From contig DAOVPS010000032.1 of NCBI GenBank assembly GCA_030629105.1, forward strand, positions 1-20,034: a stretch of 20,034 bases of DNA, written 5' to 3'. The notes under the pieces are model-generated. The model worked only from the letters and a program-made list of their open reading frames with translations, ran no database searches and was not told where the DNA came from. Numbering within the stretch: the first letter of the stretch is position 1; the number at the start of each line of letters is the position of its first letter. This stretch comes from Candidatus Heimdallarchaeota archaeon. GTDB lineage: Archaea > Asgardarchaeota > Heimdallarchaeia > JABLTI01. Below, one piece after another: positions 1-20,003 of the stretch. The position numbers and the translations under genes were made by a program.

Positions 1-512
1 ACAATACCGACCATCTCGGCAGCATCATTAAATATAATAGCTGCTTCAGTGTCTGAAAATTCCATAATCTTCTGACAAACTGGCAACGGTGTTTCTTGCC
101 AGACACCTAAAATTTTATTTGACATGTATGCTTCAATGGTTTTTTCAGAAGAAGCTATGGCAATTACTTTAGAAATAATATCACCTATTGTTATTAAACC
201 GACCAGTTTCTTATTAGAAATAACAGGAAGTTGTCTATATCCATTGTCAGTAAGAATGGGAATGACATCTGAAATAAGATCTTTTTTAGCTGCTGTTATG
301 GGTTTGGTAGTCATTAAAAGAGCTAGCTGTGTTTCCGATGGTTTATTCACTATGTCTGTTTCTGTGACGATACCTACTAATTCATCAGTATCGGCTTTAA
401 TTACAGGAAAGCATGTCAAATCTGTTTCTCGAATTAAAACGAATAATTCTTCTCTTGTACCTGGTACCTTTGCGCACACATGATCTGTTGTCATTATATC
501 TGCTACTTTCAA
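1..512 (-). CDS. CBS-domain (Bateman) protein, 3' end cut by the window edge
   Basis: Missing from the ORF track because it runs off the left edge. My minus-strand translation from TTG 510-512 (alternative ATG 492-494) reads LKVADIMTTDHVCAKVPGTREELFVLIRETDLTCFPVIKADTDELVGIVTETDIV...KPITAAKKDLISDVIPILTDNGYRQLPVISNKKLVGLITIGDIISKV... This shows tandem CBS repeats with the usual DIMT / PV / lvGIvT.Di pattern. An in-frame TAA lies at 558-560. The + ORF 124..483 is its antisense shadow. Confidence 0.75.
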   Translation of the reverse strand, partial: MKVADIMTTDHVCAKVPGTREELFVLIRETDLTCFPVIKADTDELVGIVTETDIVNKPSETQLALLMTTKPITAAKKDLISDVIPILTDNGYRQLPVISNKKLVGLITIGDIISKVIAIASSEKTIEAYMSNKILGVWQETPLPVCQKIMEFSDTEAAIIFNDAAEMVGI

Positions 513-4107: not shown

Positions 4108-5448
4108 ATGACACCTACTAAAGTTATCATTATGGGAGCAGCTGGAAGAGATTTCCATAATTTTAATACTTATTTTAGAGATAATGAGAATTATGAAGTC
4201 GTTGCCTTTACTGCAACACAAATCCCTGATATAGAAGGACGAACCTATCCTAAAGAACTTGCAGGGAATCTTTATCCAAAGGGAATCCCAATTTTTGATG
4301 AAGTAAAATTAGCAGAAGTTATTGAGAAGACAAAAGCAGATGTTTGTGTGCTTTCTTACAGTGATTTACCTTATGATTATGTTATGCATTTAGCTTCAAA
4401 GGTTATGGGCTTAGGACCCAACTTCTGGATGCTCGGAAAGAAGAAGACCTCAATTGAATCCTCAAAACCTGTTATTTCAGTTTGTGCTGTTAGAACAGGA
4501 TGTGGAAAGAGTCAAACTAGTCGAAAAATCGCAGTCAGTCTTTCCAAAATGGGTTTAAAAGTTGTGGCGATTCGTCATCCTATGCCTTATGATCCGGACC
4601 TAAATTCACAAGCTTGTCAAAGATATGCAACCTTAGATGATTTAGACAAATACCGTTGCACAATTGAGGAAAGAGAGGAATATGAACCCCTCATAATGAA
4701 TGGTATTATTCTCTACGCAGGCATTGATTATGGACTAATTCTAAAAGAAGCAGAGAAAGAAGCTGATATTATTTTATGGGATGGTGGTAACAACGATTTT
4801 CCATTCTATAAATCAGATTTAGAGATTGTGGTAACAGATCCCCACCGACCTGGTCATGAAGTTAGTTATTATCCGGGTGAAGTTAACCTAAGAACTGCAG
4901 ATGTTGTTATAATCAACAAAATGGCAACTGCTGATAGAGAAAACATTGCAATTGTAAGATCAAATATAGCGAGAGTCAATCCAAAAGCAACTGTGATTGA
5001 TGGAGCTTCTCCCTTGACCGTTGATGGTTATGAGAAGATAAAGGGTAAACGAGTTCTTGTAGTAGAAGATGGTCCAACTCTAACCCATGGTGACATGGAA
5101 TATGGTGCAGGAGCACTTGCAGCTTGGAAATTCGGAGCTAAGGAGCTTATAGATCCAAGACCGAAAGCAGTTGGATCCATTAAAGCAACTTTTGAGAAAT
5201 ACAATCACTTAGGAATTATCCTTCCAGCAATGGGTTATGGTCAGAAACAAGTCGACGAACTCGAAAAAACAATAAATGACATTGATTGTGATTTAGTTTT
5301 GATAGGAACACCAATCGATTTGGCACGAATCGTCAAAATAAAGCATGAAACTGTTAGAGTAAAGTATGACTTACAAGAAATTGGTCATCCCGATTTGATG
5401 GATGTCCTTAAACCATTCTTGAAGAAAAAAGGATTACTGAAAAAGTAG
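4108..5448 (+). CDS. Cyclic 2,3-diphosphoglycerate synthetase-like P-loop NTPase family protein (often annotated simply as GTPase)
   Basis: 446 aa. The N-terminus VIIMGAAGRDFHNFNTYFRDNENYEVVAFTATQIP matches my recollection of the cDPGS-like family. There is an internal P-loop-like RTGCGKSQTS. GGAG lies 11 nt upstream of the ATG. The family assignment is from memory and was not searched. Confidence 0.5.
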   Translation: MTPTKVIIMGAAGRDFHNFNTYFRDNENYEVVAFTATQIPDIEGRTYPKELAGNLYPKGIPIFDEVKLAEVIEKTKADVCVLSYSDLPYDYVMHLASKVMGLGPNFWMLGKKKTSIESSKPVISVCAVRTGCGKSQTSRKIAVSLSKMGLKVVAIRHPMPYDPDLNSQACQRYATLDDLDKYRCTIEEREEYEPLIMNGIILYAGIDYGLILKEAEKEADIILWDGGNNDFPFYKSDLEIVVTDPHRPGHEVSYYPGEVNLRTADVVIINKMATADRENIAIVRSNIARVNPKATVIDGASPLTVDGYEKIKGKRVLVVEDGPTLTHGDMEYGAGALAAWKFGAKELIDPRPKAVGSIKATFEKYNHLGIILPAMGYGQKQVDELEKTINDIDCDLVLIGTPIDLARIVKIKHETVRVKYDLQEIGHPDLMDVLKPFLKKKGLLKK

Positions 5449-5486: not shown

Positions 5487-6422
5487 TTATTTTCTTTTCT
5501 TTTTGCAATTTTTGGCAAATGTTTTTCGAAGAATTTTAATCTGAGCTGAAACATCTTCTTGTGGTTTATTACCTTTAATTTTTAAAATTGAACTATCATT
5601 AATCGCAAAAAGAATCGAGATTATTCGAAGATCGCCTAAACCAGGTAATATAGTCTGTCCTTCTTCTGCTACTACAATGCATAACTTCTTTGTAGCTTTA
5701 CATTTATTCTCACAATCGGAGCAATCTTCTATTTCAGCCTGGACATCATTGTTTTGTAAACTTACTCGGAATATGATATCATCTTGTTTAAGTAATACTT
5801 CGTGTTTTTCATTGATATCAAATCCCTGTTTCTTTACTAAATTCTCTATGGTTTCCAAGTTAAATCCTATTGGAATATATGTTGTTGTACGTTGTATATT
5901 GACAACTATATCTTCTACTAAATCTCTTAAGAGGGATGCAATATCATCTGGATTTTCCCATTGATGAAATGAAAAATTCTTAAGGTACTTTTCTCTGAAA
6001 ACTTTTCTAAATTTGGTCTTCATTTGTGAATAGGCTTTTTTGTTTTCAATTTTAGGTGTGAGTATTACTATTTCGTAAACAGCATTTATTTTGTCTTGAA
6101 CAATCTCCAAGGTATTTTTCACGAAATTGTGTGCATTTTTGGATCCGCACATGAAGATGTATTTCCTTGCTCCCACAAAGTAGAAGGGTAAAATTACTCG
6201 GTTTAAAGGTGTCCCGGTGACTGTTGTGACCCATATTTGTAAATCAACTTCCCCTCGAGAGGTATTAGTTCGAAAAACAATTGGATCTACTCCTATTAAT
6301 TGAAGGAGGTTTCCTTTGTGATGAGCAGTGATCTCTCTCAGATGTTCATGGTAATGATCTTTTAGAATGGTTGGTTCTAAAACCAACATGACTTTCGTGA
6401 GAAATCTTACCATGAAATGCAC
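5487..6422 (-). CDS. Rab/Ras-like small-GTPase-fold protein with degenerate nucleotide-binding motifs, plus a Cys-rich C-terminal domain (putative pseudo-GTPase)
   Basis: 311 aa. Aligned by eye to Rab: KVMLVLEPTILKD replaces KxxxxGxxGVGKS (G1 lost). LIGVDPIVFRT...VDLQIWVTTVTG parallels TIGVDF...VKLQIWDTAGQ (G3 Asp and Gly lost). FYFVGARKYIFMC parallels YYRGAxGxxxVYD. IVILTPKIE parallels LVGNKxDL (G4 lost). The C-terminal ~130 aa carry CSDCENKCKATKKLC and a polybasic tail. The ORF is solid; the fold call is inference. An alternative start is ATG 6413. Confidence 0.45.
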   Translation of the reverse strand: MHFMVRFLTKVMLVLEPTILKDHYHEHLREITAHHKGNLLQLIGVDPIVFRTNTSRGEVDLQIWVTTVTGTPLNRVILPFYFVGARKYIFMCGSKNAHNFVKNTLEIVQDKINAVYEIVILTPKIENKKAYSQMKTKFRKVFREKYLKNFSFHQWENPDDIASLLRDLVEDIVVNIQRTTTYIPIGFNLETIENLVKKQGFDINEKHEVLLKQDDIIFRVSLQNNDVQAEIEDCSDCENKCKATKKLCIVVAEEGQTILPGLGDLRIISILFAINDSSILKIKGNKPQEDVSAQIKILRKTFAKNCKKKRK

Positions 6423-6531
6423 CTGAACTATTCATTAACTGTCTGCTAACACAAACGTTAGTATTTAACAAATATTAATCTTTCAATCTCAGAATTAGAA
6501 TAAAAGCTTTTTTTAATTTCAATTGGTAAGT

Positions 6532-7287
6532 ATGATTATGGATCAGCATTACCCAATTATACCAGCAAATTCAATCCCATTCATAACTGTTGAACAAATG
6601 ATAGAAGTAGACCGATTAATGATGGAAGAATATCAGATATCATTAGTTCAAATGATGGAGAATGCTGCTTATAATCTTGCTTTACTAAGTAAAACTCTTT
6701 ATCCTGAAGTTGAGAATTTTATAATCTTAGCTGGTAAAGGAAATAATGGTGGAGGAGGATTAGGAGCTGCTCGTAGACTGCATAACTGGGGATTTTCTGT
6801 TACTGTTTTACTTGCAAGTGAAGAAGGATCATTAAAAGCAGTTCCTGCTAAACAACTTGAAATATTAAAAAAGCTAAAAATAAAAATCCTACACAATATA
6901 GCTGACTTTGATAAACTACTTGACAAAAAATCTGAAAGAACACTCATAATTGATGCTTTACTGGGTTATAGTTTGAAAGGGAATCCTCGAGGTAAATATA
7001 AACATTTAATCAATAAAGCAAAAGAATCTAATCTACCAATAATAAGTTTAGATATTCCATCCGGTATAGAAGGTACCAAAGGATTAGTTCTCAAACCAGC
7101 AATTGAAGCTGATATTACAATGACTTTAGCATTACCCAAAACAGCTTTTCTGAATAGAGCAGCCAAACAATTTCTTGGAAGATTATTTGTAGCAGATATT
7201 TCAGTGCCAATTGAACTTTACGAAGAAATGGGAGTTAAGGTTAACAAATCACTTTTTCATAGAAGTACTATAGTCGAGATTAAATGA
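6532..7287 (+). CDS. nnrE: NAD(P)H-hydrate epimerase (YjeF N-terminal domain, stand-alone)
   Basis: ILAGKGNNGGGGLGAARRLHNWGF...IIDALLGYSLKG...ISLDIPSG is the YjeF_N/NnrE signature. ATG 6532 is preferred over TTG 6523. An A/T-rich TATA-like box at ~6495-6506 lies ~26-37 nt upstream, so the transcript may be leaderless. Confidence 0.88.
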   Translation: MIMDQHYPIIPANSIPFITVEQMIEVDRLMMEEYQISLVQMMENAAYNLALLSKTLYPEVENFIILAGKGNNGGGGLGAARRLHNWGFSVTVLLASEEGSLKAVPAKQLEILKKLKIKILHNIADFDKLLDKKSERTLIIDALLGYSLKGNPRGKYKHLINKAKESNLPIISLDIPSGIEGTKGLVLKPAIEADITMTLALPKTAFLNRAAKQFLGRLFVADISVPIELYEEMGVKVNKSLFHRSTIVEIK

Positions 7288-7312
7288 AAAAAGAAGTATA
7301 TACGTGTAGATT

Positions 7313-9091
7313 TCAATCCACACGTTTAGTTGATGCAGCCATTTTATCTGGATCCGAGATTATCTCTATTAATGCTGGTTTTCCTGATTGTAGAGCTTGC
7401 TCAAATGCTACATCTAATTTCTTAGGATCTTTTACTCTTACACCGAAACCGCCACAAGAGTTTGCGAATTCTGCAAAATTTGGATTTGGAAATTCTACTC
7501 CAAAAACAGGATATCCATCTCGAAGTAATTCCTTTTTGATGTTCTTTAGAACGCCATCATTGAAAACCACAACAACTATATTCAATTTTTCTCGTACAGC
7601 AGTGGTAAAATCTGCCATTAACATAGCAAATCCACCATCGCCAGTTACACAAACAACTTGCTGTTTGGGATATTCAAGTTTCGCAACTAAAGCAGCAGGC
7701 AAACCAAAACCCATGCTTGCAATGTTGGCATTGAGATACGTTCTGTGACCTTCACAAATGAATTTCTTGTAAAACCAATATGTATGATCACCAACATCAA
7801 CGGTAAAAATAGTGTCTTTTTTGAAATTTCTTCTAAGAGCCTGAATAACAAATCCAGGATTTATTGGTATTGAGAAATCTTTTCCTTCTGTCTCGAGTTC
7901 CGCAAAGTGCTCAGCCCTCATCTTTTTGGCTTCAGCTAAAAACTCTTCATCTTCTGTTTTTTCTTTAACAAGAGGAACTATTTTCTGAAGAATTAAACCA
8001 GCATCACCTACGAGGCCAACATTCACATCAAATGTTTTCCCAATTCTTGTAGGATCTTTATCAATTTGTAGAATCTTGACTCCTGCAGGAACTAAGTTTG
8101 CTTGTCTGAACCCTGATCCTATGATTATAATGAGATCAGCTTTCTGAATGGCTTTTGCAGCATGTTTTGTACCAATTGATCCCAACACACCCAAAGCTAA
8201 TTCATGAGTTTCATGAACAACACCCTTCACTCGAGAGGTTGTAGCAATTGGAGCTTTTAATTTCTCAGCCAATTCAACAAGTAAATCACCACAATGACGT
8301 GCCCCCCAACCACCAAAAACTACTGGTTTCTTGCAACCATCGATTAGCTTTATAGCTTTCTTAATCTCATCATCTGTTGCAACGACTTCGCTTTGGAATA
8401 TTCGCTTCTCTGGTTGAATTATTGAATCTTCAATCGTTTCAGCAAGAACATCAGTTGGACAACTGAGAACGGATAAACCCGGCTTCTTAAGAGCGTATTT
8501 CGCAGCCATCATAGTAAGTTTGATAGCTTGATTTGATCGAGCAACAGTTTCTGCATATTCTGAAAACGGTCTAAAAAGCTCGATTTGATCTATTTCTTGG
8601 AACGCTTCACTCCCAAGATACACTTCAGGTATTTGCCCGACTAATGCTAAGACAGGACTCCTATCAGTCGCAGCATCCATTAAACCTGTGATCATATTTG
8701 TGGCACCAGGACCAGCAATGGACATGCAGACACCTAACTTGTCGGTAATTTTACCATGAGCAGAAGCCATAAAGGCGCCTGTTTCTTCGTGCCTAACAAG
8801 AATGAAATCAATATTATCGTTTTTCCGAATCGCATTAACTAATGGTAAATTGGAATCTCCCGGAATACCGAAAACATGCTTAACTCCAAAAGCAACTAAT
8901 TGCTCAATGATTTTTTCAGCAACAGTTGTATCTGTTTTTTCAGACTTTTTTTTTCCTCCTAATAAAACAAAAGCAGATTTTGGGGCTCCACAAACCGGAC
9001 AAGTATAAGAGTGAGGCAAATCAGAGAATTTCACTCCTCTAACATCTTCTTCATAAAGATAATTACAAACAGTACAACGATAAATTGCCAT
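7313..9091 (-). CDS. Rubredoxin-domain fused to a PoxB/pyruvate-oxidase-like thiamine-diphosphate (TPP/FAD) enzyme
   Basis: The N-terminus MAIYRCTVCNYLYEE...YTCPVCGAPKSAF has two CxxC knuckles and is rubredoxin-like. A ~20-aa linker follows, then the TPP_N domain (FGIPGDSNLP...RHEETGAFMASAHGK...GPGATN). The TPP-binding motif VTGDGGFAMLMADFTTAVREKLNIVVVVFNDG closely resembles E. coli PoxB GDGGFSMLMGDF...VVFNN. ATG 9091 (GGAG 9 nt upstream) is preferred over 9112. Confidence 0.85.
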   Translation of the reverse strand: MAIYRCTVCNYLYEEDVRGVKFSDLPHSYTCPVCGAPKSAFVLLGGKKKSEKTDTTVAEKIIEQLVAFGVKHVFGIPGDSNLPLVNAIRKNDNIDFILVRHEETGAFMASAHGKITDKLGVCMSIAGPGATNMITGLMDAATDRSPVLALVGQIPEVYLGSEAFQEIDQIELFRPFSEYAETVARSNQAIKLTMMAAKYALKKPGLSVLSCPTDVLAETIEDSIIQPEKRIFQSEVVATDDEIKKAIKLIDGCKKPVVFGGWGARHCGDLLVELAEKLKAPIATTSRVKGVVHETHELALGVLGSIGTKHAAKAIQKADLIIIIGSGFRQANLVPAGVKILQIDKDPTRIGKTFDVNVGLVGDAGLILQKIVPLVKEKTEDEEFLAEAKKMRAEHFAELETEGKDFSIPINPGFVIQALRRNFKKDTIFTVDVGDHTYWFYKKFICEGHRTYLNANIASMGFGLPAALVAKLEYPKQQVVCVTGDGGFAMLMADFTTAVREKLNIVVVVFNDGVLKNIKKELLRDGYPVFGVEFPNPNFAEFANSCGGFGVRVKDPKKLDVAFEQALQSGKPALIEIISDPDKMAASTKRVD

Positions 9092-16649: not shown

Positions 16650-17939
16650 ATGAAAAAGCAGAGAATTCTCATTTTAGTTGCTTTATTGATAACTCCAATG
16701 ATTCTCTCATTCATTAAAATTGATGGTGCAGTTGAAAACCCAATTGATGAAGTTATAACACCGAATGTTCTTCCTAATGGAGCACCAGCAATGGATTGGA
16801 ATTTAGAAGATATTATGAGTGACACAAATTATACTTTTTCATCTCTTGCAGGAAAAGTCGTTGTGATGGATTTCTTCTTTACAGGATGTACACCTTGTAT
16901 AATAGCTATGCCACTTTTACGAGAAATTAATGATAATTATTTCGGAAACTCAAACTTTGTTTTAATGAGCATAGACATAGAATCCGAAGAAGTTGCTAAT
17001 GAAACTGTTCTTGAAGATTTTGCAAGTACATACAATATGAATTGGATGATATTCCGAGATACTGTAAATATGGCTAATTATTATAATGTAAATAGTTACC
17101 CGACTCTAGTACTTTTCAGTAAAACACAGTATATTTACTACTCTGAAATTGGGGTGAGTGGAACTCCGCATTTAATCGATATGATTGATGATTTATTATC
17201 CTTCAGTGATAGCACTGATCCAGTAATAAATGAAATTGAAACTGATAAAACTTCATTTTCAGTTCTTGATAATAGGTTTGTTGTATTAGCTAATATCACA
17301 GACGATACTTTGAGACACGTAAGATATGAATTAGAGATGGGTAGCTACTCGGATTCTAAAGATTTCTGGAAACCAAGTACAAATGTAATCAATTATGAAT
17401 TCGTAGTTGATCCTGTAGCTATTTATAATGCCACACAAAATGGTATAACTAATACCACCATCAATGTTATTGCGGAAGATTTTGCAGGATTATCAACAAC
17501 AGATAATATAACAATAGATGTTGATAATTTAGTTGACGCAGAAAGCCCTTTTGTAAACATAACTGATATAAAAGAAATAGATGCTTCCGATGGTCATACT
17601 TTTGAGATATTAGCTACAATAACTGATGATTTATTGGTGGTTAATGCTTCAGTTGAGCTATTGAAAAATGGAGCATCTTTTGAATCAGGTATAATGGAAT
17701 TAGATTCCGGTGATACCTACAGTATAAAATTTTTTGATTTAACAGTCAAGAAAGGAGACATAATCACAGTTAAAGTGACAGGTGAAGATGTTGCTGGTAA
17801 AACTACAGTAGATGAGGGAGATCATATTATAACTGCTAGTTTAAGTTTAACTTTGCCAATAATTTTAGCAACCATTTTCCTTGCTAATTTGATTATCCTC
17901 CCAATACGAAGAATTCAAGTAAGAAAATTAACAAAATAA
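16650..17939 (+). CDS. Surface-anchored thioredoxin-fold (TlpA/ResA/redoxin-like, CTPC) protein with two tandem Ig-like repeats
   Basis: It has a signal-like N-terminus (MKKQRILILVALLITPMILSF). GKVVVMDFFFTGCTPCIIAMPLL...YPTLVLF is the TlpA-type CxxC motif plus cis-Pro segment, with the CxxC at nt 16887-16898. Two ~100-aa repeats follow, then a C-terminal TM plus RRIQVRKLTK. ATG 16650 is preferred over GTG 16635. Confidence 0.7.
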   Translation: MKKQRILILVALLITPMILSFIKIDGAVENPIDEVITPNVLPNGAPAMDWNLEDIMSDTNYTFSSLAGKVVVMDFFFTGCTPCIIAMPLLREINDNYFGNSNFVLMSIDIESEEVANETVLEDFASTYNMNWMIFRDTVNMANYYNVNSYPTLVLFSKTQYIYYSEIGVSGTPHLIDMIDDLLSFSDSTDPVINEIETDKTSFSVLDNRFVVLANITDDTLRHVRYELEMGSYSDSKDFWKPSTNVINYEFVVDPVAIYNATQNGITNTTINVIAEDFAGLSTTDNITIDVDNLVDAESPFVNITDIKEIDASDGHTFEILATITDDLLVVNASVELLKNGASFESGIMELDSGDTYSIKFFDLTVKKGDIITVKVTGEDVAGKTTVDEGDHIITASLSLTLPIILATIFLANLIILPIRRIQVRKLTK

Positions 17940-18035: not shown

Positions 18036-19409
18036 ATGGAAGAACTCGACAGCAAACCAAAAAGCTCTTTTCGATGGCTAAAAATCACTGGTTTAGTGCT
18101 TGCTAGTTTAGTCATTTTAGGTGGTATTGGTTATGGAACCTATTATTTCATGACTTATAACAATCTTGAACCTGCACATACTTTTTCAGTCTCAACTTTA
18201 TCTGGTGGTAATTTTACACTTATTGATCATCAAGGCAAAGTTGTTCTTTTGGATTTTATGAGTTTGAATTGTACTCCTTGTGAAGAGTTGATGCCTGAGC
18301 TTGTTGCTCTTTCAGAAGAATTCAATGAATCTCTCGTTATTTTTTCTATTGATGTAGATTTATCTGATAATGTAACAGATCTTCAAAATTACAGAGATTT
18401 TCATAATGCTACTTGGGATTTTGCTTTAGATACAGTTGGATTAACTACTGCTTATGCAGTTGTTACTCTACCAAAAACGGTAATCATTGATAGCGAAGGT
18501 TATGTTACGTTTGCAAACATTGGATTTTCAGCGGACATAAATTTGCGAGAGAAAATCCAGGAGACAATTGAAGGTAAAGCAACACGCATTAATGCCAGTT
18601 TGGGGGGAACCATGGCTGTTGCATTTTTTGCTGGTATTTTATCATTTTTCTCCCCTTGTGCATTTCCAATGCTTCCTGGTTATATGGCTTATAATTTAGA
18701 TCTTTTAATGAAAACTGAGAAAAGCGAAGATGAAATAGATGAAAAGGATAAAGATACGAAAGCAAGAGTACGACGTCGAGTTTTGCGATCACTTTTATGG
18801 GGAGGAGCTGCTGCACTTGGTATTTTCCTTTTCTATATGATAATTGGTTTAATTGTATCATTTGCTGGTGGAGCGGCAGGCAATTGGGAGTGGGTGGAAT
18901 ATATAATACCCGCAGTGGGCGGCTTATTGATTATTCTTGGAATTTTGACGTTTACTCCGTTTTCCTTTGATATGAGCAAAATTATCAGTCCAATTGCAAA
19001 TATTGGGAAGAGAAAGGAGAAAACCGAGTTAGATGACTCAGAACAAGAAAAGACGAAGAAGCGCTCTAAAGCTTTTAGTGAAGCTCCTCAACTTTTACAA
19101 TTATTTCTTTACGGAATAACTTATGCTTTAGCTTCTATTGGGTGTAATTTCCCAATTCTTATTGGATTAGTTCTTGGTGCTTTACAAGCTGGTTCTTTCT
19201 TTAATGCCATCATGATTTTTCTCGTGTATTCAATTGCTATGGCATTACTTATGATAATAATTACACTACTCGTTGGATTTTCTAAAGATGCATTAATCAA
19301 TAGATTACAAGCATCAACAAAAGCAGTCAAAATTATAAGCGGAATCTTACTCATTCTTGCAGGAGGATTCCTTATTGGTTGGTTCCTCTGGGACCGTTAC
19401 AAACTTTGA
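18036..19409 (+). CDS. ccdA: Fusion of a membrane-anchored TlpA-like thioredoxin domain (CTPC) with a CcdA/DsbD-family transmembrane thiol-disulfide electron transporter
   Basis: An N-terminal TM is followed by GKVVLLDFMSLNCTPCEELMPEL...LPKTVIID (redoxin fold, CxxC at nt 18270-18281). Then comes FFAGILSFFSPCAFPMLPGY, and later YALASIGCNFPIL. These are the two conserved Cys-x-x-Pro TM motifs of CcdA/DsbD. Two long charged loops are inserted. AGGA lies 7 nt upstream of the ATG. Confidence 0.8.
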   Translation: MEELDSKPKSSFRWLKITGLVLASLVILGGIGYGTYYFMTYNNLEPAHTFSVSTLSGGNFTLIDHQGKVVLLDFMSLNCTPCEELMPELVALSEEFNESLVIFSIDVDLSDNVTDLQNYRDFHNATWDFALDTVGLTTAYAVVTLPKTVIIDSEGYVTFANIGFSADINLREKIQETIEGKATRINASLGGTMAVAFFAGILSFFSPCAFPMLPGYMAYNLDLLMKTEKSEDEIDEKDKDTKARVRRRVLRSLLWGGAAALGIFLFYMIIGLIVSFAGGAAGNWEWVEYIIPAVGGLLIILGILTFTPFSFDMSKIISPIANIGKRKEKTELDDSEQEKTKKRSKAFSEAPQLLQLFLYGITYALASIGCNFPILIGLVLGALQAGSFFNAIMIFLVYSIAMALLMIIITLLVGFSKDALINRLQASTKAVKIISGILLILAGGFLIGWFLWDRYKL

Positions 19410-19436: not shown

Positions 19437-20003
19437 ATGTTGATTAAAAAGAGAAGATTTGGATTCTTCATTACTCTACCTGTATTATTACTTGTTCTTT
19501 CAGTTGCAATGCAATCAGCTAAATATACTGATTCTATTCCACTACCAGCTGTTCTTTCAGTTACTCATCAACCAGTTGTTGTTACAACTCAAACCAATCT
19601 TACCGTTACAGTTTCTTTTGATTACAACATAAACGTGACAAGTGTACAAATTCAATATTGTCAAATCGAGCCTTCATTTACTTGTCATTTTCCAAAAATA
19701 GACATGATCCGAACTGGGAATTATTTCTGGAGTGGATCATTTATCATCTTGGAAGAAAGTGGGGTAATTGGTTACAAACTATACATTTATCTTCAAACTA
19801 CTGATTTCGTAGCCCCGAATGAAACCGGTTATTTAGGGTATGACAACATAGTAGAACCTGCAGCAGGAGAGTTTTACTTTTCAGTGGAATTAAATGCTAC
19901 TACAGATACAGCTCCGATGAGTTTTGGTTTACCATGTATAGCATTAACTTTTGGAGCAATGGTTCTAATAAGAAAGAAGTTGAGAAATATAAGGAACGTA
20001 TGA
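19437..20003 (+). CDS. Hypothetical secreted protein with a C-terminal membrane anchor
   Basis: 188 aa, starting 27 nt after ccdA with GGTG 5 nt upstream. It has an N-terminal signal-like TM, a beta-rich N-X-S/T-containing domain with a Cys pair (YCQIEPSFTC), and a C-terminal TM plus RKKLRNIRNV. No recognisable family. Confidence 0.6.
   Translation: MLIKKRRFGFFITLPVLLLVLSVAMQSAKYTDSIPLPAVLSVTHQPVVVTTQTNLTVTVSFDYNINVTSVQIQYCQIEPSFTCHFPKIDMIRTGNYFWSGSFIILEESGVIGYKLYIYLQTTDFVAPNETGYLGYDNIVEPAAGEFYFSVELNATTDTAPMSFGLPCIALTFGAMVLIRKKLRNIRNV

Follow-up and report, generated by a model that had tools for sequence, protein, structure and literature searches.

Asgard archaea are studied for their expanded repertoire of small GTPases as a precursor of eukaryotic membrane trafficking, and to our knowledge the Asgard small GTPases catalogued so far are active switches. 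Here we describe a gene from a stretch of 20,034 nucleotides of Candidatus Heimdallarchaeota archaeon (GenBank assembly GCA_030629105.1, contig DAOVPS010000032.1, positions 1–20,034), the whole of which is referred to as the window. The product of this gene, termed here the window protein, joins an N-terminal domain that derives from a Rab/Ras-like small GTPase, and in which the nucleotide-binding motifs G1–G5 have been replaced, to a C-terminal domain with four conserved cysteines (the Cys4 domain). An earlier note, made from the nucleotide sequence alone, had proposed it as a candidate archaeal pseudo-GTPase. Residues are numbered throughout on the maximal open reading frame (ORF) of 311 codons, which begins three codons ahead of the probable start.

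5487–6413, minus strand: gene for the pseudo-GTPase/Cys-domain protein (308 aa and a stop codon), with the ATG at 6413 as its probable start (orthologue starts; translation checked)

The Asgard Rab-like or RasL GTPases, among them Thor-Rab (PDB 7EZB; PMC10933270) and the Lokiarchaeal Rab-like proteins (PMC4915359), belong to the same superfamily and organismal group and have the same fold. As in the present family, switch I and the interswitch contain RabF-type motifs and there is no C-terminal prenylation motif; however, these GTPases keep G1–G5, bind GDP/GTP and hydrolyse GTP, whereas the present family, judged by its alignments, has lost all of the G motifs. Furthermore, they are mostly single-domain proteins or fused to roadblock or longin domains, whilst the family described here is fused to the unassigned Cys4 domain. 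Rup3, a Heimdallarchaeia-specific group of the Ras superfamily with large insertions in the GTPase domain (bioRxiv 10.1101/2024.02.28.582541), is likewise a lineage-specific and divergent Ras-superfamily group of Heimdallarchaeia with no eukaryotic descendants. The present domain, in contrast, has a 2-residue insertion relative to Rab, and is set apart from Rup3 by description.

Amongst eukaryotic proteins, CENP-M is listed as a scaffold pseudoGTPase and is reported to be needed for kinetochore assembly and stability (PMC10211241). The window protein resembles it in having a small-GTPase fold with degenerate nucleotide motifs, and in being conserved and no pseudogene; unlike the eukaryotic CENP-M, the present family is archaeal and keeps RabF1-, RabF2- and RabF4-like motifs, and no specific sequence relationship to CENP-M was found among the PDB profile or Foldseek matches described below. 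CENP-M is, moreover, a single-domain protein and is not known to have a Cys-rich C-terminal domain. The pG1 and pG2 domains of p190RhoGAP are pseudo-GTPase domains without G motifs, for which nucleotide binding is reported to be absent (Stiegler and Boggon 2017, cited in PMC10211241). These too are GTPase-fold domains devoid of G motifs inside a multidomain protein, but they differ from the present family in that they lie within a large metazoan RhoGAP, have no metal-binding partner domain and are of independent origin.

The N-terminal domain of the window protein genuinely descends from a Rab/Ras-like small GTPase. Its extent, and two of the segments in which it resembles Rab, are as follows:

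5898–6404, minus strand: Rab/Ras-like G-domain fold, residues 7–175 (AlphaFold2 model, Foldseek, hhalign and PDB profile matches)
6282–6296, minus strand: switch I with RabF1-like IGVDP, in which G44, V45, D46 and P47 are invariant and the preceding Thr of G2 is replaced by L/M (alignments; entropy 0.63 bits)
6213–6245, minus strand: strand β3, bearing RabF2-like DLQIW, and directly after it what remains of G3, VTTVTG (DLQIWVTTVTG; HMMER and hhalign alignments; entropy 0.42 bits)

When the window protein was searched on its own, Pfam and NCBIfam gave no meaningful match and Pfam Ras was not reached; Glyco_transf_61 (E 0.017) fell below threshold and was rejected, and a single-sequence search of the PDB yielded a marginal match to Rab6 (E=0.18). 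A profile made from an alignment of 32 orthologues (A1) was searched with hmmsearch against all PDB sequences, and the 60 matches listed were almost entirely Rabs, the best being Sec4 (E=6e-4), followed by Rab3B, Rab35, Rab10, Ypt1 and Rab1, with residues ~32–178 covered. In hhalign, A1 matched a small alignment of Rab/Ras sequences, namely H-Ras and three canonical database Rabs, with 95.7% probability (E=1.1e-8) over 169 columns, from β1 to α5 (residues 7–184); 169 of about 178 residues thereby align to Rab with small gaps and one 2-residue insertion. Additionally, 6 of 13 distant two-domain relatives have a direct Pfam Ras/Roc match, and a profile built on the distant relatives reaches Rab-17 at E=2e-7.

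The structural comparison leads to the same superfamily. In the AlphaFold2 (AF2) model of both domains, for which the predicted local distance difference test score (pLDDT) was 82.3 and the predicted template modelling score (pTM) 0.75, the N-terminal domain has the secondary structure order β1-α1-β2-β3-α2-β4-α3-β5-α4-β6-α5. Of the best 50 Foldseek matches of this model in the PDB, 48 were Rab chains and the other two were Ran chains, with E values from about 2e-8 to 8e-7, a probability of 1.00 and a template modelling score (TM-score), normalised to target, of 0.55–0.75; several of the top matches were Rabs in nucleotide-free complexes with guanine nucleotide exchange factors (e.g. 6ixv, 6djl, 4lhx and 7kmt). 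The earlier note had aligned residues ~9–175 by eye with the whole G domain, an alignment now confirmed by hhalign and by the PDB profile search; the Rab-characteristic IGVD and the LQIW strand that it singled out are both present on translation, within the two segments listed above. A non-GTPase fold, named there as an outcome that would overturn the proposal, was not what A1 against the PDB, hhalign or Foldseek returned, all of which landed on the Rab/Ras fold.

A search of 5.8 billion proteins identified 39 homologues of the window protein (47–99% identity, mostly about 300–330 aa), none of which carries a precomputed Pfam domain and among which no frameshifted relative was seen. Those that bear names are nearly all listed as 'hypothetical protein' of Candidatus Heimdallarchaeota or of Asgard-group metagenome-assembled genomes, which agrees with the archaeal (Asgard) source assumed at the outset, and six of the eight GTDB species representatives with the gene have a Heimdallarchaeota label. 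Two of the orthologues, P0026 and L013, are found on contigs that bear the labels 'candidate division Zixibacteria' and 'Bathyarchaeia', yet the gene is of the typical Heimdall type and L013 also has the 446-aa neighbour described below; these contigs are probably mis-binned. Compared with its 84%-identical orthologue at L003, the window gene has a ratio of non-synonymous to synonymous substitution rates (dN/dS, Nei–Gojobori) of 0.19 at a dS of 0.49, with 0.11 for the N-terminal and 0.27 for the C-terminal domain, whilst more distant pairs gave 0.12–0.15 with dS saturated. Thus the gene is conserved and under purifying selection, and is no pseudogene.

A decaying pseudogene, or a chance likeness of a generic α/β fold to Rab, would have explained why the window protein itself has no Pfam match and why its single-sequence match to Rab6 is weak. 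Signs of decay had been set beforehand as grounds for abandoning the proposal; instead we found dN/dS values of 0.11–0.19 and 39 full-length orthologues without frameshifts, and the profile, profile–profile and structure searches converge specifically on Rabs. These analyses refute both versions of the explanation, and the probability that we would still assign to it is negligible.

The replacement of G1–G5 has gone to fixation: all orthologues have it, as does every two-domain relative that could be detected across the Asgard lineages. In the window protein, in addition to the switch I and β3 segments given above, it is seen at the following positions:

6357–6380, minus strand: G1 (P-loop) remnant LEPTILKD in place of GxxxxGK(S/T), paired by hhalign with GSENVGKT
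6048–6062, minus strand: G4 remnant LTPKI in place of (N/T)KxD, paired by hhalign with GNKAD; the next β6–α5 loop is without the SAK of G5

Within G1, both glycines are replaced by Leu, a Pro has been inserted and the Mg-binding S/T has become Asp; of the residues that now occupy the loop, E16 and P17 are nearly invariant among orthologues. According to the hhalign alignment, the Thr of G2 ahead of IGVD is L/M, the position of the base-stacking Phe is taken by H35, the DTAGQE of G3 pairs with VTT(VT)GTP (D to V, Q to T, and an insertion of two residues) and the SAK of G5 is deleted. The replacement of G1, G3 and G4 and the absence of G5, as first read from the translation, therefore stand, with LEPTILKD, WVTTVTG and LTPKI all located and the hhalign pairing in agreement. 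When 76 collected proteins were scanned with a regular expression for GxxxxGK[ST], it was present only in the three canonical Rab controls, all three of which have G1, G3 and G4. No Walker A was found in about 70 family members of Heimdall-, Loki-, Jord/Frey-, Sigyn- and Promethearchaeota; intact P-loops in orthologues, which would have marked the window copy as an isolated case of decay, were accordingly seen in none of these relatives. On sequence grounds the window protein departs from an active GTPase at G1, at G2/G3 and at G4/G5, and has the fold, the motif loss and the conservation that would be looked for in a pseudo-GTPase.

One alternative to complete loss of ligand binding is that the pocket has been remodelled for a nucleotide or a phosphorylated ligand, held in a non-canonical manner by K21, H25, R29, H34/H35, N38 and T66/T67. 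The window protein and most orthologues do have K at the position of the P-loop Lys, invariant polar residues cluster in α1 and switch I, and a distant relative, P0065, keeps an NKTD G4 motif. Against this, Leu stands in place of both P-loop glycines and the loop contains a Pro, whilst Asp occupies the site of the Mg-binding S/T and Val that of the G3 Asp. Neither G4 nor G5 is left, no region is under less constraint than the G4 loop, and K21 itself varies between K, Q, R and L among orthologues. We consider a ligand-binding role of this kind improbable.

The distribution of conserved positions among the orthologues points elsewhere than to the pocket. Column entropy is lowest in switch I (0.63 bits), β3 (0.42 bits, the most conserved segment) and β4 (0.46 bits), lies at 1.5–1.75 bits in α3, α4 and α5, and reaches 1.86 bits in the former G4 loop, the most variable segment. 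As entropy is lowest at switch I, β3 and β4 and highest at the G4 loop, these alignments indicate that selection acts on the classical effector/regulator face and not on the guanine pocket. The conserved face consists of the RabF1-like IGVDP in switch I, the RabF2-like DLQIW in the interswitch and a RabF4-like YFVGA in switch II. The consensus of RabF1–RabF5, which goes back to Pereira-Leal and Seabra in 2000, reportedly reads IGVDF, KLQIW, RFRSIT, YYRGA and LVYDIT. In the hhalign alignment, agreement with the Rab motifs amounts to 4/5 for IGVDP, 4/5 for DLQIW and 3/5 for YFVGA, as well as 2/6 for both LNRVIL and IFMCGS. It is the RabF motifs that determine the binding of regulators and effectors to Rabs, and such motifs have also been described in Rab-like proteins of archaea (PMC4915359).

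The remainder of the protein is taken up by the Cys4 domain and the basic tail:

5490–5891, minus strand: C-terminal α/β domain, residues 178–311, made up of a helix, four strands, a Cys knuckle and three helices (AF2)
5679–5723, minus strand: Cys cluster CSDCENKCKATKKLC, C234-x2-C237-x3-C241-x6-C248 (CX2CX3CX6C), a probable metal-binding site (Zn or Fe-S) by its conservation
5490–5507, minus strand: conserved C306 followed by the basic tail KKKRK (CKKKRK), ending an amphipathic basic helix of residues 291–310 (alignment)

Modelled alone with AF2, the C-terminal domain gave a pLDDT of 85.6 and a pTM of 0.78. It has no consistent Pfam match and no PDB sequence match, and in Foldseek against the PDB there was no significant match (best E=1.3, TM-score ≤0.28 normalised to query); the description of these ~130 aa as an unassigned domain thus holds for Pfam families, PDB sequences and PDB folds alike. 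Nor did the four-Cys domain match any known metal-binding fold in Foldseek against the PDB or in Pfam. The CX2CX3CX6C cluster, already recognized in the earlier note, is borne out by translation, and C234, C237, C241 and C248 are invariant in 32 orthologues and in 16 diverse C-terminal domains of 26–59% identity. Exceptions to the cluster are P0010, in which the second Cys is Ser, and P0040, which has lost the first two. As the Asgard protein Thor-TRAPPC3 binds Zn via four Cys (PMC10933270), an identity of the domain with V4R/TRAPPC3 (Bet3) was also considered, and Foldseek, Pfam and hhalign (0.1% to a V4R protein) all spoke against it. A gene with XylR_N and V4R domains (PoxR-like) is located two genes upstream of the Freyarchaeial relative at L016 (3697–4368, minus strand); hhalign of its product to the Cys4 domain gave 0.1%.

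Beyond the cluster, every orthologue has a fifth cysteine, C306, which is also kept in almost all distant relatives. The net charge of the last helix and tail has a median of +4 with a range of 0 to +8, so that the polybasic end reported earlier is present in the window protein as CKKKRK but is common rather than universal in the family. A prenylatable C-terminal motif of the Rab family (CC, CXC or CAAX) is absent from the window protein and its orthologues in the alignment. Moreover, the distance of the conserved Cys from the C-terminus ranges from 2 to >30 residues, and the residues after it are basic rather than aliphatic; this variable distance together with the basic residues rules out a reading of C306 as a CAAX/CC/CXC prenylation site. 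ICMT/PEMT-family methyltransferase genes are found near two family members (L003 4318–5076; L007 1843–3027, 3164–4609 and 11369–12124, coordinates that include L007 upstream genes), and L007 also has a prenyltransferase-repeat gene and an actin gene upstream. Suggestive as these genes are beside a conserved C-terminal Cys, we treat the ICMT/PEMT and prenyltransferase-repeat neighbours as coincidence, because their placement is inconsistent and the Cys does not form part of a CAAX motif.

The same architecture is found well outside the immediate orthologues. An exhaustive profile search of 1.84 billion representatives gave 30 proteins at E ≤1e-3. Besides the orthologues, they comprise a second clade of about 340 aa (P0048–P0050), to which P0077, named Heimdallarchaeota, is related, whilst further two-domain relatives are named Lokiarchaeota/Lokiarchaeia, Freyarchaeota/Jordarchaeum, Sigynarchaeota and Promethearchaeota. 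All of the two-domain relatives consist of a Rab-like N-terminal domain with a degenerate P-loop and a Cys4 domain. Matches to the N-terminal domain alone were limited to canonical Rabs with prenylation-type C-termini, and no match to the C-terminal domain was seen outside the two-domain family in the profile searches. As the same P-loop-less two-domain form spans the Asgard lineages and the C-terminal domain has no match elsewhere, the fusion and the motif loss appear to be old and Asgard-specific.

Taking these observations together, we consider it likely that the protein is a constitutive, nucleotide-independent adaptor that would combine the retained Rab effector face with a metal-binding Cys4 domain and a basic C-terminal helix. 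To judge from its motif loss, the pseudo-GTPase would neither bind nor hydrolyse GTP, and we take it to be of the type that does neither in the pseudo-GTPase classification of Stiegler and Boggon. Because GTP binding and hydrolysis are presumed lost, the protein would act without nucleotide, as a constitutive adaptor. Its IGVDP/DLQIW/YFVGA face would probably hold a partner permanently, or else dock the protein's own C-terminal domain; the Cys4 domain would bind a structural or sensory metal; and the basic C-terminal helix could provide a second contact, with an acidic membrane or another polyanion.

A number of observations weigh against such an adaptor. Lys is kept at the P-loop position in many members, and polar residues near the former pocket (H25, R29, H34, N38 and T66) are invariant, making a non-canonical ligand possible. 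The gene neighbourhoods differ by clade, with an NTPase resembling cyclic 2,3-diphosphoglycerate synthetase in Heimdall and a SAMP-like ubiquitin-like protein in Jord/Frey. A strand of six residues has C241 and C248 at its two sides in the AF2 model, which makes it geometrically uncertain that one metal could sit on all four Cys; additionally, the P0040 lineage is without two of the four. Lastly, what the conserved switch face contacts could lie within the protein itself and not on a partner.

A related proposal, compatible with the adaptor and not exclusive of it, is a metal- or redox-controlled switch, in which loading, loss or oxidation of an Fe-S cluster or Zn would change how the C-terminal domain docks on the switch face and thereby gate the access of partners. 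The four invariant Cys and the fifth conserved Cys across all clades would suit this, as would the fact that the C-terminal domain and the dead G domain always occur together; the pTM of the two-domain model suggests a defined arrangement of the two domains, and a CX2CX3C triad with a remote Cys would, by our own reasoning, fit a cubane cluster. None of this evidence distinguishes a sensory from a purely structural site, however; no known Fe-S or Zn domain was matched in Foldseek against the PDB or in Pfam, P0040 lacks two of the Cys and P0010 one, and no conserved redox partners are encoded beside the gene. We look upon the switch as unlikely, if less so than the remodelled pocket.

With regard to novelty, full-text literature searches found no paper that joins pseudoGTPase with Asgard, and the two papers in which both pseudoGTPase and archaea appear are general pseudoenzyme/pseudokinase reviews; in one of these, archaea occur only under pseudokinases. 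The claim that a protein of this kind had not been described for archaea is therefore consistent with these searches, and to all appearances no conserved family of 'dead GTPases' had been seen in archaea before this one. Its locus tags do not occur in the accessible part of the supplementary GTPase tables of Vargova et al. (bioRxiv 10.1101/2024.02.28.582541), in which the assemblies concerned may not be included; the same authors state that some divergent Asgard Ras-superfamily sequences are still unannotated. Standard GTPase censuses that rely on Pfam find none of the Heimdall members, so that Asgard Ras-superfamily genes are more numerous than the counts indicate.

In its broadest form our interpretation is tentative, and we think it less likely than not: the proteins may constitute an unrecognized Asgard-wide family, the first prokaryotic pseudo-GTPase family, in which a Rab-type domain lost its nucleotide before the Heimdall/Loki/Jord-Frey/Sigyn split and was coupled permanently to a new metal-binding fold; the product might work through the Rab effector face as an adaptor, either constitutive or gated by metal or redox state. 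If this were true, the strategy of a 'dead GTPase as scaffold' would predate eukaryotes, and the C-terminal domain would be a new fold with no solved counterpart. The family would show non-catalytic GTPase-fold scaffolds to be present already in the archaeal relatives of eukaryotes, an idea that was previously based on eukaryotic cases such as CENP-M and p190RhoGAP. From a practical standpoint, it could serve as bait for the binding partners of Asgard Rab-like proteins, and it offers a confidently modelled Cys4 domain without a solved structural relative.

In the list of ORFs for the window, the gene appears on the minus strand as an ORF of 311 codons at 5487–6422, opened by GTG. The N-termini of all orthologues correspond to MVRF/MPRF, i.e. 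to the fourth codon of this ORF, and a sequence element overlaps its first codon:

6420–6424, minus strand: AGGTG, a putative Shine–Dalgarno-like element (by sequence), 6 nt upstream of the ATG at 6413 and including the GTG of the maximal ORF

Since all orthologues begin at the ATG, and the GTG falls within the AGGTG element, the true start is most likely ATG 6413, giving 308 aa.

The genes that adjoin members of the family differ between clades, and those that recur are given below:

4108–5448, plus strand: 446-aa P-loop protein with Walker A GCGKS, convergent neighbour of the pseudo-GTPase (synteny; weak PDB/NCBIfam matches)
L006 5780–5977, L016 4671–4979, L019 1619–1816 and L020 2743–2976, plus strand: ThiS/SAMP2-like genes of Jord/Freyarchaeial loci

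The 446-aa gene stands tail-to-tail immediately downstream of the pseudo-GTPase in the window and in 13/13 other Heimdall-type loci, whereas the other flanks vary; as the orientation is convergent, the two do not form an operon. Its product has no Pfam match, resembles cyclic 2,3-diphosphoglycerate synthetase (9sxb, E 2.5e-6) and HypB only faintly, and is probably distantly related to this synthetase and to HypB-type NTPases; a literature search for COG2403 gave nothing on it. The gene is far more conserved than the pseudo-GTPase (86–98% amino acid identity, dN/dS 0.03–0.06), and a functional link between the two proteins is a possibility. Across clades (Heimdall, Jord/Frey, Loki, P0068-type and Heimdall-paralogue loci) there is no shared conserved operon partner. 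Of the gene-neighbourhood conservation that was to be checked, then, the part that stands is the 446-aa neighbour, kept in all 14 Heimdall-type loci, whilst a partner common to the clades was not found.

At the four Jord/Frey loci, the ThiS/SAMP2-like gene encodes ~65 aa ending in LPRIAGG and lies on the same strand as the family member, 22–30 bp upstream of it. L020 has a second ThiS-like gene (2241–2528), which ends in AAGG. Ras binds ubiquitin-fold Ras-binding domains (RBD), and it could be imagined that the Ras-like face of the family binds a β-grasp protein, with the Cys domain taking part in conjugation or sulfur transfer in a ubiquitin-like/sulfur-carrier (SAMP/ThiS) pathway, as the adjacency in 4/4 of the Jord/Frey loci examined would suggest. 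The association is confined, however, to one closely related clade (72–82% identity) whose synteny is likewise conserved over a wider region. Neither the window nor any of the other 13 Heimdall-type loci shows it, nor do the loci of the Loki, P0068-type and Heimdall-paralogue members, and no E1-like gene is adjacent. A role in such a pathway seems very improbable to us.

Elsewhere in the window, ORFs of 119–360 aa at 9931–11013 (plus strand), 12811–13206 (minus strand), 124–483 (plus strand) and 19437–20003 (plus strand) have no Pfam match. The gene at 7313–9112 on the minus strand encodes a thiamine-pyrophosphate enzyme of 599 aa (TPP_enzyme N, M and C) that has a rubredoxin domain fused to its N-terminus, and an ORF of 154 aa antisense within this gene (7284–7748, plus strand) is probably spurious. 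Two tandem genes of about 440–460 aa (16635–17939 and 18036–19409, plus strand) each carry a thioredoxin-like/AhpC-TSA domain, the second also having DsbD-type transmembrane domains, and together they look like a duplicated pair of membrane thiol-disulfide oxidoreductases.

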